From an uncultured Ignavibacteriales bacterium (GTDB lineage: Bacteria > Bacteroidota > Ignavibacteria > UBA10030 > SZUA-254), in the NCBI GenBank assembly GCA_963714795.1, contig CAVQPS010000009.1, positions 550,709-614,708 on the forward strand: a stretch of DNA of 64,000 nucleotides. The letters are read 5' to 3'. Positions 3,874 to 39,323 of the stretch are shown in pieces; position 1 is the first letter of the stretch; the number at the start of each line of letters is the position of its first letter. Made by a program: the position numbers and the translations under genes. The notes below the pieces were generated by a model. The model had not been told where the DNA came from and made no database searches. It saw only the letters and a list, made by a program, of their open reading frames with translations.

Positions 3874-5316
3874 TTACACCCGTTCTACGCGTATCGTATT
3901 CGTCGGGTGACCTTCGAAGAGCGGAATGCCGGCGAGGAGGACGACCATTTCGCCGCGCTCGATATATCCTTCCGCCGATAATTTTTCCAGAATCCGTTTG
4001 AACGTTGCGTCGGATTCTTTTTTCTGATCTTCCACGATCAATCCCCGGATGCCCCAGATGAGATTCAACCGCTGCATGATTTTCGGTCGTGTTGTAACGG
4101 CGATGATGCGCGCATGCGGTCGAAACTTTGCCACATGCACTGCTGTCGAGCCGGAATGCGTGAGCGCAACGATAGTCGAAGCTTTCAAATTTTCCGCCAG
4201 CACGCATGCCGACTTGCACAGCGGATCATATTCGTGCGTGGTTTGTATCCAATCGGGATTGTACTTTTGCTGCATTGCCACCTGTTCTTCCGTTTTGCGA
4301 ATGATGCGATCCATCATTTGGATTGCCTGTACCGGATATTTTCCGACGGATGTTTCGCCGCTCAGCATGACGGCATCGGTGCCGTCGAGAACGGCGTTGG
4401 CAACGTCGCTTGCCTCTGCGCGTGTCGGGGTCGGATTGTTGATCATCGATTCGAGCATCTGTGTCGCGATGATAACCGGTTTTCCCATCTCATTGCATTT
4501 CCGGACGATCATTTTTTGAAGCAGGGGAACGTCTTCCGCCGGCAATTCAACGCCGAGATCGCCGCGGGCAACCATCACCGCATCTGTCTCCTTCAAAATT
4601 TCGTCGATGTTGGCAATTGCTTCGCCCTTTTCAATCTTCGCGATGATCGGAACTTTTCGCCCCTTCGGTCCATTTTCGATAATAAAATCCCGGAGTACCG
4701 CAACATCATGTGCGCGGCGGACGAACGAAAGCGCGATATAATCTACCTCATGTTCAAACGTAAAAAAAAGATCTTCTTTGTCTTTTTCCGTCAACGACGG
4801 AGCAGAAACTGCGACGCCGGGAAGGTTGATTCCTTTATGCGGTGTCAGTATGCCGCCGGTGACGACCTGAGCTTCGACATCGGTGGAAGTCGTGCGGAGA
4901 ACGCGCAGTTCGATTTTCCCATCGTCCAACAGAACGCGGTCGCCCGGTTTCACATCTTTCGGCAGTTCGGTATATGTCGTCGAAAGAATTTTCTCATTCC
5001 CTTTTTGATCCCTGGTGGTGATGGTGACGAGAGCGTTTGCCTGTAATTCGATGGACGGTGTTTGCAATTCACCTATCCGGATTTTCGGTCCCTGAAGATC
5101 CTGAATAACGCTGATCGGCTCGCCCGACGCGGCGGCGGCTTGCCGCAGGTTTTTCAACGTTTGTAAATGTTCGTCGTGTGTGCCGTGGGAAAAATTCATC
5201 CGCGCAACATCCATTCCCGCCTGTATCATCGACAGCAGCTGTTCTACCGTCGACGACGCAGGACCGAGCGTGCAGACGATTTTTGTTTTTCCAAAAAGAC
5301 GTTTTGTGTTTGACAT
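3874..5316 (-). CDS. pyk: pyruvate kinase
   Basis: 480 aa with 'KIVCTLGPAS', 'MNFSHG' and 'LDTKGPEIR-like QGPKIRIG' motifs. Confidence 0.9.
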   Translation of the reverse strand: MSNTKRLFGKTKIVCTLGPASSTVEQLLSMIQAGMDVARMNFSHGTHDEHLQTLKNLRQAAAASGEPISVIQDLQGPKIRIGELQTPSIELQANALVTITTRDQKGNEKILSTTYTELPKDVKPGDRVLLDDGKIELRVLRTTSTDVEAQVVTGGILTPHKGINLPGVAVSAPSLTEKDKEDLFFTFEHEVDYIALSFVRRAHDVAVLRDFIIENGPKGRKVPIIAKIEKGEAIANIDEILKETDAVMVARGDLGVELPAEDVPLLQKMIVRKCNEMGKPVIIATQMLESMINNPTPTRAEASDVANAVLDGTDAVMLSGETSVGKYPVQAIQMMDRIIRKTEEQVAMQQKYNPDWIQTTHEYDPLCKSACVLAENLKASTIVALTHSGSTAVHVAKFRPHARIIAVTTRPKIMQRLNLIWGIRGLIVEDQKKESDATFKRILEKLSAEGYIERGEMVVLLAGIPLFEGHPTNTIRVERV

Positions 5317-5323
5317 ACAGATT

Positions 5324-6097
5324 CTATAATACTTGAGTGGTGTGTGAATAGCAAGTTCTCATAAGTTGAGGGAGAATAACGCCTGCCTTGCCGAGGAGGA
5401 CTTCATCCGCCTTTGGAGTCAGATCGGTCGGTTCGATATTGATTTCAACGACATATGCTCCTGATTTTTTCGCGATAGCCGGGAGTGATGCCGCGGGAAA
5501 TACCACACCCGACGTTCCGATGGCGAAAAACAGATCGGCGTGTTCTGCGGCTTTGACGCTTTCGTTCCACTCGTCTTCAGGAAGATTTTCACCAAACCAA
5601 ACGACATCGGGCCGTATAAGATTTTTGCAGAACGAACATCGCGGCACCTGTTGTTGAGAAAGAATTTCTTCGTTGGTGAAATATTTCCCGCACCCGATGC
5701 AATAATTGCGTTCGATATTTCCGTGCAGTTCATATATTGTCGTACTGCCGGCGCGGCGATGAAGATTGTCGATATTTTGCGTAATGATCGAGAACCGCCG
5801 GTGATGTTTTTCCATCTCTGCGAGAGCGCGATGTCCGGCGTTCGGTTGAATATCGGCAATCAGCTTTTTCCTGTGGTTGTACCATTCCCAAACGAGATCG
5901 GGATTTCGCATAAATGCATCGAAGTTGGCAAGTTCTTCCGGCTTGAATTTTTTCCAGATGCCGTCTTCGCCGCGGAATGTCGGTACACCGCTTTCAGCAG
6001 ACATGCCGGCGCCGGTAAAAGTCGCGACGGCATCGGCTTGCCGGAGTTTCGCAATCAGCCGTTGTGAGATAGTGATGTTTGAGGATTCAGGTGTCAT
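5324..6097 (-). CDS. cobB: NAD-dependent protein deacylase (Sir2/CobB family)
   Basis: Contains 'GAGMSAESGVPTFRG', 'QNIDNLH', and a Cys-x2-Cys...Cys-x2-Cys zinc ribbon. Its start overlaps the acylase stop by 4 nt (ATGA). Confidence 0.85.
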   Translation of the reverse strand: MTPESSNITISQRLIAKLRQADAVATFTGAGMSAESGVPTFRGEDGIWKKFKPEELANFDAFMRNPDLVWEWYNHRKKLIADIQPNAGHRALAEMEKHHRRFSIITQNIDNLHRRAGSTTIYELHGNIERNYCIGCGKYFTNEEILSQQQVPRCSFCKNLIRPDVVWFGENLPEDEWNESVKAAEHADLFFAIGTSGVVFPAASLPAIAKKSGAYVVEINIEPTDLTPKADEVLLGKAGVILPQLMRTCYSHTTQVL

Positions 6098-35712: not shown

Positions 35713-36282
35713 GTGGAAAAAATTCAAGTAGATATTTTAGGACTTTCAACAAGCCCGGCAAGCGGCGGAGCGTATGCGCTCATTCTGAAAGAAGTGAACG
35801 GAAACCGCCGGCTTCCCATCATTATCGGTGCGTTTGAAGCGCAATCGATTGCACTGGAGATGGAAGGTATTAAGCCGCCGCGGCCGTTGACGCACGATTT
35901 GATGAAAAACCTTCTCGAAACACTGGGAGCCGATCTTGCCGAAATCATCATCAGCGAATTGCGTGACGGAACGTTTTATGCGAAACTCAACTTCGACAGT
36001 CAGGAAGTTGATGCCCGTCCGAGCGATGCGATTGCCCTTGCCGTCCGTTTCGGCGCTCCGATTTTCGTTGCCGACAAAGTGATGGATGAAGCGGCATTCC
36101 TTCCGGAAGCCGAAAATCCGGAAATTACCGAAGGGGAGAAACCGGAATCAAAAGGTGTTGAACCGAAACTGACAAAATTGGAAGCTCTTCGTGCGCAGCT
36201 GAAAGAAGCTATTGAGCGGGAAGATTACGAATCAGCAGCGAAATTACGCGACGAAGTCAGAAAAGTTGAACAGCGGCAATAA
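35713..36282 (+). CDS. bifunctional nuclease (DUF151) with a C-terminal UVR motif
   Basis: A DUF151 core followed by the UvrB/C-like helix 'LEALRAQLKEAIEREDYESAAKLRDEV'. Confidence 0.7.
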   Translation: MEKIQVDILGLSTSPASGGAYALILKEVNGNRRLPIIIGAFEAQSIALEMEGIKPPRPLTHDLMKNLLETLGADLAEIIISELRDGTFYAKLNFDSQEVDARPSDAIALAVRFGAPIFVADKVMDEAAFLPEAENPEITEGEKPESKGVEPKLTKLEALRAQLKEAIEREDYESAAKLRDEVRKVEQRQ

Positions 36283-37001: not shown

Positions 37002-37943
37002 TTATAGTCGTTTACGAATGATGAATTGAAAGCGTGCCGGTTTCTGGCTGACGATTTTGATTTCTTCGGGACCCGAAAGCTCGGGAACAATTGTTGTGAC
37101 GGAATCCTGATCGAGCTCCTGGTAATTGACCGTTGCCTGAAAATCGGACAGCGATAATTTTGCAAGCTGTTCGATACCGCCGCGCACGATAATATCTATT
37201 TTCGGCGGAATGAAAATGACCTCTCTGTTAAAGGGCGTTCCATTTGCCGTGACCGGGATTCCGACGAAGGTCTTTTCCGCAAACGGCTGGACATTGACCT
37301 GCAACCGCGTAGTCGTTGCCGATACCTCCAGCGAATAATCCGGCGATTCTTCAACCGGCATTATGAGATCGATTGGTGCACGGATATCCTCGAATTTTTT
37401 ATATGCCGTATGCCATGTTGAAATCGAGCGGACGATATGTTCTGTTCCACCGATCGTCGTGCTGTCGGGTGATAAATGAATTGCACCGACCTGCCCGTAC
37501 CCATCATGAAACTCAAGCATGAATTTCGGTTCGATTGGCACGCGCTTTTCCGTATAATCTTCCACCGCTAACACCAGAGAGTCGGGTTTTATATCGATCG
37601 ATTGAAGAGAGAACGGTAATTTGATATGTTCGAAAAGATCTTTGCCTGTGATGATAAAATCTTCCGTTCCGATGGAAGACATGTCGATAAAATATTTAAT
37701 GTCGGGTGTCAGCGATAATCCTGCCAGCAGCCAGCCGGTACCGCGAAAACGAATGCTCATCGTTTTCGGGACCGGATATTTCAATGCTTTGCCATCTTTC
37801 ATGTTTTCCAGGACGACGGGAACCCGCCGCACGACGGTATAGTCATCGCGCATATTGACCGACAGCCACATGACGACGGCGAAGAGGATCGATCCGATAA
37901 CGATATGGTAGCGTTTTTTTTCCATGCAAATAAAAAACTCCAT
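37002..37943 (-). CDS. YbbR/CdaR-like domain protein
   Basis: An N-terminal TM segment followed by repeated 'V..P..V...GW/G' beta-rich modules, 313 aa. Confidence 0.4.
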   Translation of the reverse strand: MEFFICMEKKRYHIVIGSILFAVVMWLSVNMRDDYTVVRRVPVVLENMKDGKALKYPVPKTMSIRFRGTGWLLAGLSLTPDIKYFIDMSSIGTEDFIITGKDLFEHIKLPFSLQSIDIKPDSLVLAVEDYTEKRVPIEPKFMLEFHDGYGQVGAIHLSPDSTTIGGTEHIVRSISTWHTAYKKFEDIRAPIDLIMPVEESPDYSLEVSATTTRLQVNVQPFAEKTFVGIPVTANGTPFNREVIFIPPKIDIIVRGGIEQLAKLSLSDFQATVNYQELDQDSVTTIVPELSGPEEIKIVSQKPARFQFIIRKRL

Positions 37944-37981
37944 CCGTTCATGCCGGGTGGAGTTTTCTTATAGAGCAAAAA

Positions 37982-38596
37982 TTATTTTGGAAATTTTGTT
38001 TTTATCAGGATTTCGATAAGCTCATCGCGGTTCGCGCGGGAAATCTGCCTGCCGAAAATCGGCAGTCCTTCGACGCTTCGCGCGTAATGCCGGAGTTTGT
38101 GCACCGTCATTTCCTCGAGTTGTGTGCGATATGTCTGCTCGTCATCGCTCAGGGGTGGAGTGACCGTCGTCTCCGGTAATTCGCTCGGCGGTTCCGTTGA
38201 ATCTTCAACGGTAGTTTCAATGACTCGTTTCTCTTCGATTTTCTTCGGTGGTCTGCCGCGGCGTTTTGAAGAAACTTCAACTGCTGCCGGTTCTTCGCGT
38301 GGTTTTTCTTTGGTTTGCGACGGCGGAGGATAGATCAGAATTTCCACTTCATCATCGGGTCTGGGAATAACGTGAACCGAAACCAGCTCTCCGACCCGCT
38401 GTGCTGCCGCCGCGCCCGCATCGACAGCCGCACGTACCGCGGCAACATCGCCTTTGAGCTTGATGGTCATCAAGCCGGCGTCGGCGCGTTCCTTGCCGAT
38501 GAGTTCTACATCCGCGGCTTTCGTCGCGGCATCAGCCGCTTCAATAGCGCCGATAAGACCGCGGGTTTCTATAAGTCCTAAAGCGTAATCAAGCAT
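37982..38596 (-). CDS. bacterial microcompartment hexamer shell protein (Pfam00936 domain, PduA/EutM-like) fused to an AT-hook and a Rho-N/SAP-like C-terminal extension
   Basis: The N-terminal 90 aa are 'ALGLIETRGLIGAIEAADAATKAADVELIG...[32 protein letters not shown]'. These are followed by a Pro/Glu-rich linker, 'KRRGRPPKK', and 'LEEMTVHKLRHYARSVEGLPIFGRQISRANRDELIEILI'. Confidence 0.8.
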   Translation of the reverse strand: MLDYALGLIETRGLIGAIEAADAATKAADVELIGKERADAGLMTIKLKGDVAAVRAAVDAGAAAAQRVGELVSVHVIPRPDDEVEILIYPPPSQTKEKPREEPAAVEVSSKRRGRPPKKIEEKRVIETTVEDSTEPPSELPETTVTPPLSDDEQTYRTQLEEMTVHKLRHYARSVEGLPIFGRQISRANRDELIEILIKTKFPK

Positions 38597-38638
38597 ACGA
38601 GTCGACCGTTATACCGGAACCCGGTTCCGGCATTGCGA

Positions 38639-38953
38639 TTATTTCGGTTGCGGCCGTTTGGGAAGAATCAATTCCACATCCGCATGCGGACGCGGGATGA
38701 CATGAACGGAGACGAGCTCTCCGACGCGCTGTGCCGCCGCTGCGCCGGCATCTGTCGCCGCTTTCACCGCGCCGACGTCGCCGCGTACCATCACGGTAAC
38801 ATATCCGCCGCCAATCACTTCCTTGCCGATCAGCGTGACTTTTGCCGCTTTGACCATTGCATCGGCTGCTTCAATAGAGCCGACTAAACCTTTTGTCTCG
38901 ACCATTCCGAGCGCATCGAGCGATATATCTGCCATTAGAAAAACTCCTTTCAA
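38639..38953 (-). CDS. bacterial microcompartment hexamer shell protein (PduA/EutM/CcmK-like)
   Basis: '[30 protein letters not shown]...[35 protein letters not shown]', about 95 to 104 aa. Confidence 0.85.
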
Positions 38954-39323
38954 TCAATGTGAGATGGCATTCCTGTTTCCAAAGACGTGAAACGAATATA
39001 GTGAAATGGGAGCATATTGTCAATTATAGATAATAAATATTCGAGGGTTCTAAACAAAAATCCTTAAAAAACATGTCCGATTTGGTAGATTCTGAATTTT
39101 TTGCTACTATGCTCCACTGTAGAACGTCTGCACGGCAAGGGTGGAGACGATGAAGATTGTGGGTAAGATGGAATCCGGTTAGTTAGATAGTTGGACACCA
39201 CCTTTAAGGTGGAGTCCATCTGGTCTGACCATCTGCCATTGTTATTCTTCATCAATTTTACTATCTTTTGACGGTTACCTTTCTAACTCTTGAATCAGTT
39301 GTTTCCAATCGGAGAACATTCTA

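Follow-up and report, generated by a model that had tools for sequence, protein, structure and literature searches.

The 64,000-nucleotide window analyzed here, the whole stretch of DNA under study, comes from an uncultured Ignavibacteriales bacterium (GenBank assembly GCA_963714795.1, contig CAVQPS010000009.1, positions 550,709 to 614,708) and holds only two open reading frames (ORFs) for bacterial microcompartment (BMC) shell proteins. They lie side by side on the minus strand: a canonical BMC-H protein of 98 amino acids and, directly downstream, a 204-amino acid BMC-H protein that carries a large extension at its C-terminus. We found the extended protein to be encoded by a genuine, intact gene that very probably belongs to a FRAG1-type microcompartment, and we tentatively propose that its tail, a conserved four-helix module on a disordered and partly basic tether, faces the cytosol and binds nucleic acid. 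The pair and the parts of the extended protein are placed in the window as follows.

38639..38935, minus strand: basal BMC-H, 98 amino acids (KAAK, GGG pore loop, PRPH); Pfam BMC 102.5 bits
37982..38596, minus strand: extended BMC-H, 204 amino acids; seen by Pfam, homologue alignments, conservation and AlphaFold2 (AF2) prediction
38357..38584, minus strand: BMC domain of the extended protein, residues 5-80; Pfam 96.4 bits, AF2 predicted local distance difference test score (pLDDT) >90
38141..38356, minus strand: predicted disordered linker, residues 81-152; pLDDT 44-69, no secondary structure
38240..38266, minus strand: AT-hook-type KRRGRPPKK, residues 111-119; GRP core with Lys/Arg flanks
37985..38152, minus strand: four-helix C-terminal module, residues 149-204; from AF2, conservation and profile search

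The product of the ORF at 37982..38596 is identical to the protein quoted in a preliminary description of this DNA, which had read it as a canonical shell domain followed by a Pro/Glu-rich linker, an AT-hook and a Rho_N/SAP-like tail, and had cautioned that the frame through the linker needed verification. That the tail is an artefact of a 1-nt indel, or a chance extension of the ORF, is so improbable that it can be set aside. A protein database search returned 119 homologues of 190-234 amino acids, covering 96-100% of the query at 60-93% identity, so that more than 100 independent full-length relatives carry the same arrangement. One homologue with 83% identity, encoded on an independent 199-kb contig, aligns across all 204 residues with 0 gaps, linker and AT-hook included. 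The tail is also encoded by 452 species-representative genomes. Per-column conservation in the final ca. 55 residues equals that of the BMC domain, which excludes a frame artefact for the tail, whereas the linker is variable. AF2 prediction from a 56-sequence alignment gave pLDDT >90 for residues 5-78, block means of 44-69 for residues 80-150 and ca. 90 for residues 153-201. The artefact reading has as its basis a general concern about indels in this assembly, together with two gene calls from other assemblies (P0126 and P0128) that join the tail to the downstream gene and so point to errors near the locus elsewhere. The full-length homologues, the conservation of the tail and the gapless alignment led us to reject it. 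Thus, 37982..38596 is confirmed as a genuine, intact, in-frame gene, and the shell domain, the linker, the KRRGRPPKK motif and the C-terminal segment quoted in the preliminary description (residues 160-200) all lie where they had been reported. Because the whole-protein predicted template modelling score is 0.44, the BMC domain and the tail are modelled as two folded modules on a flexible tether, without a fixed mutual orientation.

In both P0126 and P0128, the tail module is fused to the N-terminus of a protein that corresponds to the 313-amino acid product encoded downstream of the shell pair, an arrangement not present in this window. These fusions probably stem from frameshifts or faulty gene calling in the contigs concerned, and they confirm the gene order independently.

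The extended protein contains a single PF00936 domain (residues 5-80, 96.4 bits, E 1e-27; gathering score 24.5), which AF2 models with the expected beta-alpha-beta layout at high confidence. NCBIfam shell-protein models matched this BMC part alone, and none did so at its cutoff. The tiling Lys (K26) and Arg (R79) are kept; however, KAAD replaces KAAN, PRPD replaces PRPH and the pore loop ERADAGLM replaces the GGG loop, so that the N and H of the basal edge motifs are both lost. Because KAAD and PRPD stand in place of the canonical motifs, we take the protein to be a specialized rather than a basal BMC-H.

To place these differences in the family, we used a scan of one genome per species, from which the best 80 of the 452 tail-positive genomes were examined as loci L001-L080. 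All 80 are Ignavibacteria-type metagenome-assembled genomes (MAGs), including Ignavibacterium album, Melioribacter and Stygiobacter. Two cultured species, Melioribacter roseus and Ignavibacterium album, have the pair. Among 79 fusions, the His was lost in 76 and the GGG loop in 76, with the tiling Lys and the Arg of PRP retained, whereas the upstream partners have KAA[K/R], GGG and PRPH in every case (74/74). This contrast suggests that the extended protein is probably a minor, specialized tile among bulk hexamers. The partner in the window conforms to the canonical type, scoring 135.6 bits against the NCBIfam EutM model (cutoff 133). Its mechanical ORF begins at a TTG (38953; 38639..38953, 104 amino acids), but the true start is likely the ATG at 38935, which has AAAGGAG 8 nt upstream and gives 98 amino acids, the length of the basal BMC-H in most related loci. 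A pairing of charges between the KAAK edges of the basal protein and the KAAD edges of the fusion was considered and dropped, as K[A/T]AN is present in many fusions and KAAR in EutM.

The linker opens with a conserved YPPPSQTKEK (residues 89-98); its basic half comes next, and the acidic half after that. This basic-before-acidic order recurs in 119 of 120 relatives; length and sequence vary across the family, and the family composition (P 21%, E 13%, A 10%, K+R 15%) agrees with the Pro/Glu-rich character first described. AT-hooks are minor-groove DNA binders. The Pfam AT_hook model (PF02178) matched residues 111-121 with 13.9 bits, under its gathering score of 17.4. Nevertheless, RGRP occurs 25 times in 120 linkers, compared with 0.24 expected from composition (ca. 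100-fold), always in the form (K/R)RGRP(R/P)K. GRP is found in 34 of the 120 close relatives (ca. 28%) and in 2 of 105 distant ones, whereas 71 of those 105 have a basic cluster in the linker. Because GRP is rare beyond the close relatives while basic clusters are common, the AT-hook is best read from these alignments as the subclade form of a more general basic patch, with the patch as the conserved feature. Subfamilies with much longer linkers also exist (P0140-P0271; e.g., P0171, P0204, P0212 and P0213). Their linkers run to 100-300 residues and have a second short conserved motif, roughly (T/S)I(E/S)RL(R/K)(R/K)EALG, that is absent from the window protein.

When the tail was modeled alone, AF2 gave a pLDDT of 91.4 and helices at positions 9-17, 21-30, 39-43 and 46-57 (tail numbering); in the whole-protein model the four-helix fold spans residues 153-201. 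A core motif, VHxLRxxAR...PIxGRxISRANRxxL, is shared across subfamilies, and V165, R169, A172, R173, G182, R183, I185, S186, A188, N189 and L193 are invariant. Ten positions (V, L, R, R, G, R, I, S, A, L) remain invariant across subfamilies of 31-68% identity, and mean column identity in close relatives is 75%. Three of the basic residues are invariant and two nearly so. A word-index homology search with the tail alone returned one candidate and was uninformative; we therefore searched 1.84 billion cluster representatives (50% identity clusters) exhaustively with HMMER, using a profile of the tail. At E <= 0.001 there were 603 matching proteins, and at E <= 1e-10 there were 180. The match almost always lies at the extreme C-terminus. 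Among the best 150 of the 603, 111 have a recognizable BMC domain and the other 39 are short (40-213 amino acids), several of them being fragments of fusions or mis-called genes. By these counts, the module appears to be essentially specific to shell proteins. One divergent subfamily (P0176, P0194, P0201 and P0243) has a BMC-like N-terminal domain that is barely recognizable (Pfam BMC 21.6 bits, under the gathering score), and in it the tail module is not terminal but ends 20-40 residues short of the C-terminus.

The family that the tail most resembles is Rho_N (PF07498). The model matched residues 159-199 of the window protein with 14.0 bits in the whole protein and 18.1 bits in the tail alone, both short of the gathering score of 24.9, so the window protein does not qualify as a Rho_N member by score. 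Across the tail family the scores run from 13 to 24.9 bits, and the tail of P0136, a genuine but 5'-truncated fusion, reaches exactly 24.9. When diverse tails were scanned singly, Rho_N was the only recurrent Pfam match (21/42, 8/10 and 8/10), the next family appearing in 3/42. Matches to SAP-type models were fewer and weak: SAP (PF02037) in 1/42 at E 0.13, FANC_SAP in 1/42 at E 0.037 and, among PDB sequences, the SIZ1 SAP chain against the tail profile at E 0.54. The weak structural neighbors of the tail in BFVD include two proteins annotated as Rho_N and one annotated as SAP. Like the helix-extended-helix (HeH) class of Rho_N, SAP and LEM domains, the tail has the pattern L..(M/L)(T/N)V.ELR..AR...G..I.GR.IS.A.R..LI and an apparent layout of helix, extended loop and helix; unlike Rho_N, it contains an insertion of 3-5 residues and one more helix at the N-terminus, and its family is confined to shell proteins. 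Taken together, kinship with the Rho_N/HeH class is plausible and, in our estimate, fairly probable. A transitive link through standalone tail proteins was also sought, but none of these exceeded the Rho_N gathering score and several were fusion fragments. Assignment to the SAP domain was dropped, as the SAP model gave no significant match. Homology to the C-terminal domain of EutK (PDB 3I71) was rejected, the hhalign probability being 0.2%; the NCBIfam EutK model (NF012010) scored 86.6 bits (cutoff 218) over residues 5-106, which reflects the BMC domain only.

These results divide the predictions of the preliminary description, which was partly supported overall. Its AT-hook survives as a canonical GRP core with basic flanks in this protein, but falls under the Pfam threshold and is missing from most relatives. 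The Rho_N/SAP assignment is weakly supported: the tail is a folded module with a recurrent Rho_N match, reaching the gathering score in P0136; on the other side, the window protein itself is sub-threshold, SAP is not significant and neither PDB nor Foldseek searches gave a significant match. The proposed analogy to EutK holds as a loose likeness of architecture but not for the tails, which are unrelated. Finally, the domain combination, which had been called unfamiliar, was already on record, so its novelty had been overestimated.

That record is the catalog of Sutter et al. (2021, Nat Commun 12:3809). In FRAG loci, as described there, the shell genes are spread across as many as six places in the genome, and identifiable enzymes or encapsulation peptides are lacking. 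The FRAG1 type, most prominent in Ignavibacteria, combines a standard BMC-H with a BMC-H whose large C-terminal extension holds an ordered domain; it also includes a BMC-P triplet (green, grey and orange clades) elsewhere in the genome and, in 24 of 57 catalogued loci, an optional pair of PduS and PduT homologues. An Ignavibacteria FRAG1 BMC-H of 229 amino acids, UniProt A0A1G0T956, falls in clade 'teal2c' of the catalog's BMC-H tree (Supplementary Data 2). The same authors had drawn the analogy to EutK for the extended class. The window fits this description in its shell pair, a standard BMC-H beside an extended one with an ordered C-terminal domain, and in its context, with shell genes remote from enzymes in an Ignavibacteria lineage. 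A BMC-H of 93-98 amino acids lies directly upstream of the fusion on the same strand in 77 of the 80 loci, and a third BMC gene within 10 kb was seen in one. Because the published FRAG1 pair matches and 77 of 80 relatives share it, the window protein is very probably the FRAG1 extended BMC-H. The architecture is thus not new, and the window holds another member of it. The literature searched yielded no later work on FRAG1 and no reports of shell proteins with Rho_N, SAP or AT-hook elements.

Around the shell pair, the following elements and neighboring genes were recognized.

38995..39023, minus strand: sigma-70-like promoter match TTGACA-17-TATATT (11/12), ca. 60 nt upstream of the first shell gene
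38605..38639, minus strand: hairpin with a CCGGAACC/GGTTCCGG core in the 42-nt spacer between the shell genes; -17.3 kcal/mol, z -2.4
37932..37968, minus strand: intrinsic-terminator-like hairpin followed by UUUUUUAUUU, directly 3' of the fusion stop codon
37002..37943, minus strand: 313-amino acid membrane protein with an N-terminal hydrophobic segment, syntenic with the shell pair
35713..36282, plus strand: protein with BFN_dom and a C-terminal UVR motif, ca. 1.7 kb from the pair, syntenic in 30 loci

Sigma-70-like sites occur in this region at the frequency expected from shuffled sequence, and only its quality and position favor the match at 38995..39023, a putative promoter of the pair. 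The spacers of 59 related loci also fold well (mean z -3.06; z <= -2 in 35/59), with differing sequences and in some cases a T-run after the hairpin. The spacer hairpin is a possible attenuator or mRNA-stability element that would set the ratio of the two shell proteins, and its recurrence suggests that the fusion is probably expressed at a lower level than the bulk hexamer. Downstream of the fusion, the terminator-like hairpin has a folding energy of -20 kcal/mol (z -3.5), which 0 of 200 shuffles equaled, and a crude test without shuffle control found a strong hairpin and T-run within 90 nt downstream in 63 of 78 loci. The shell pair thus looks like a self-contained bicistronic unit. Because this hairpin overlaps the first Met of the 313-amino acid protein, the true start of that protein is probably its second Met (ca. 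37925). The protein matched nothing in Pfam or NCBIfam even at E <= 10; downstream synteny across the 80 loci includes it in 43 and pdxJ in 51. The other neighbors in the window are housekeeping genes, encoding FBPase, ETF, a bifunctional nuclease, PdxJ, AsmA, KsgA and a P-type ATPase. The proximity of the bifunctional nuclease to a putative nucleic-acid-binding shell protein is probably a coincidence of gene order.

A single-sequence EutN probe of limited sensitivity detected no EutN-like or BMC-P ORF, either in the 64-kb window or, in the 80 loci, less than 10 kb from the pair; the PduS/PduT pair is absent from the window. In one related locus (L017), a PduS-like flavoprotein (3954..5822, minus strand; Nuo51 FMN domain, 4Fe-4S dicluster, SLBB and RnfC_N) is encoded directly upstream of a PduT-like tandem-BMC protein, ca. 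5 kb from the BMC-H pair, suggesting electron transfer across the FRAG1 shell. A separate observation concerns the MAG Yes70-14 (JASEHD01), which has two copies of the BMC-H pair on different contigs (L008 and L015), reflecting either genuine duplication or a bin in which strains are mixed.

From these data a role can be proposed. The extended BMC-H would be co-transcribed behind the canonical bulk BMC-H of a FRAG1-type microcompartment and, with its Lys and Arg retained, could tile into shell facets while differing in its pore and having a modified edge. In BMC-H proteins the termini are located on the concave face (PMC5534457), which in solved shells is turned outward, towards the cytosol (PMC6787980). 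It follows from this topology that, should FRAG1 shells obey the same rule, each hexamer would display six tails outside the shell. Each tail would consist of a disordered tether of ca. 70 residues, whose basic patch is in this clade a true AT-hook, and a four-helix domain of ca. 50 residues with invariant arginines, which may be a divergent Rho_N-like (HeH) module. Such tails could bind nucleic acid multivalently, most plausibly chromosomal DNA, and in this way fasten the compartment to the nucleoid or position it there with no need for a separate adaptor. In this proposal, gene integrity, domain layout, conservation, gene-pair organization and motif differences come from the present analysis; the shell topology is taken from the literature, as are the FRAG1 components that other parts of the genome encode; and the fold class, the ligand and the cellular role are inferred. 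As a whole, the explanation of a FRAG1 tile with cytosol-facing, nucleic-acid-binding tails that anchor the compartment to the nucleoid is the best that we can offer, though we would put it slightly below even chances. Its parts differ in strength. The recurrent Rho_N match, the weak SAP matches, the enrichment of (K/R)RGRP(R/P)K, the basic clusters and the conserved basic residues lean towards nucleic acid, and we regard binding of nucleic acid by the tail as evenly balanced; that the tail serves as a nucleoid tether is rather doubtful. The boldest form, in which a FRAG1 shell hexamer carries its own nucleic-acid-binding device, either for hitch-hiking on the nucleoid through six AT-hook/HeH tails per tile or, more radically, with the shell associated with nucleic acid or enclosing it as its actual cargo, in the manner of a capsid, is unlikely.

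Several observations weigh against nucleic-acid binding, and some of them speak for a different role, in which the tail docks a specific conserved protein partner (cargo, an assembly scaffold, a positioning ATPase or another shell component) and its likeness to Rho_N reflects only a small helical fold. The window tail has no significant match, in sequence or structure, to any characterized nucleic-acid-binding domain: Foldseek searches with the tail model gave no match in PDB and nothing at E <= 0.001 in BFVD; profiles from close and diverse tail alignments retrieved only chance-level PDB sequences (RdRp, BMI-1 and the SIZ1 SAP chain); the N-terminus of E. coli Rho has no similarity to the tail, and neither the window nor the loci supplied a rho gene from which to build a Rho profile; and a tblastn search of 50,697 phage genomes with the tail, run to find annotated Rho_N/SAP relatives, gave only one match, at E 0.6. 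Net charge is ca. 0 for the linker and ca. +2 for the tail, and the AT-hook is missing from most relatives. With 75% mean column identity and 10 positions invariant across divergent subfamilies, the tail is also far more conserved than is usual for non-specific DNA binders, and its near confinement to BMC-H fusions suggests a better fit to a specific, co-evolving partner. Moreover, FRAG loci without recognizable enzymes or encapsulation peptides need some other mechanism of recruitment, which docking would supply. The orientation of the FRAG1 shell is itself carried over from solved shells, and the BMC-P genes and any sign of shell formation lie outside the window. Protein docking is therefore a serious rival. 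We nonetheless consider it somewhat unlikely: display on the outer face opposes recruitment of cargo into the lumen, no conserved candidate partner adjoins the pair (only the 313-amino acid membrane protein and pdxJ are syntenic), and docking accounts neither for the recurring Rho_N/SAP signal nor for a linker that is basic and bears an AT-hook.

Binding of RNA, whether for autogenous control of the shell operon, for co-translational assembly or for tethering of transcripts to the compartment, is a minor rival that we judge quite improbable. The N-terminal domain of Rho belongs to that protein's primary RNA-binding region, Rho_N is the only recurrent family match of the tail, and the conserved hairpins in the operon's own spacer offer a possible target. 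Yet these hairpins are not conserved in sequence, the OB-fold that bears the primary RNA site of Rho is absent, the tail bears no similarity to the Rho N-terminus of E. coli, and AT-hooks are generally known to bind the minor groove of DNA.

Microcompartments of the FRAG type occur widely in Ignavibacteria and in several candidate phyla, and they have neither linked enzymes nor known targeting peptides. Alone among FRAG1 shell components, the extended BMC-H bears an additional module of high conservation, and it is thus the most direct experimental entry to FRAG1 function. Because its tail is not EutK-like, borders on the Rho_N/HeH class, is essentially limited to shell proteins and is expected to reach into the cytosol on a long tether that has a basic patch, a one-line remark in the catalog can be turned into a concrete and cheaply testable hypothesis of DNA or RNA binding and association with the nucleoid. 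A nucleoid tether, if real, would be the first organelle-to-nucleoid tether intrinsic to a shell, and hitch-hiking, if it occurs, would amount to adaptor-free, ParA-independent positioning and inheritance of a protein organelle. Should the tail bind a protein instead, the partner would probably reveal the function of FRAG1.

Among known systems, EutK of the E. coli and Salmonella ethanolamine-utilization microcompartment is similar in joining a BMC-H, a linker and a small (ca. 60 amino acids) helical C-terminal domain that is suspected of binding nucleic acid. It differs in its unrelated tail, in a linker of ca. 20 residues as against ca. 70 here, and in lying within an enzyme-rich operon. If the hypothesis of nucleoid anchoring is right, a second likeness is to the positioning of carboxysomes by McdA and McdB, in which the nucleoid is the matrix that holds or distributes a protein organelle (PMC6328274, PMC7182216, PMC8359340). 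In that system, however, DNA is bound by a separate ATPase of the ParA type and contact with the shell is made by a separate adaptor, whereas in the window the putative DNA binder would reside in the shell protein itself, with no linked ATPase; the analogy is one of function only. Tethers of the PhaM/PhaF type attach polyhydroxyalkanoate granules to DNA by Lys/Pro/Ala-rich, histone-like basic tails, ensuring inheritance by daughter cells. They differ in having other cargo-binding domains, no folded HeH-like end-domain and no homology to the window protein. The closest known relative is the catalogued FRAG1 extended BMC-H, which shares the lineage and the placement of shell genes away from enzymes, with a PduS/PduT pair in some genomes, and from which the window protein shows no essential difference. 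The catalog gave the tail no fold assignment and did not remark on an AT-hook or basic patch. What is added here is that the tail is unrelated to the EutK domain, that Rho_N is its sole recurrent Pfam match, that the AT-hook is of limited distribution and that the module is nearly confined to shell proteins.

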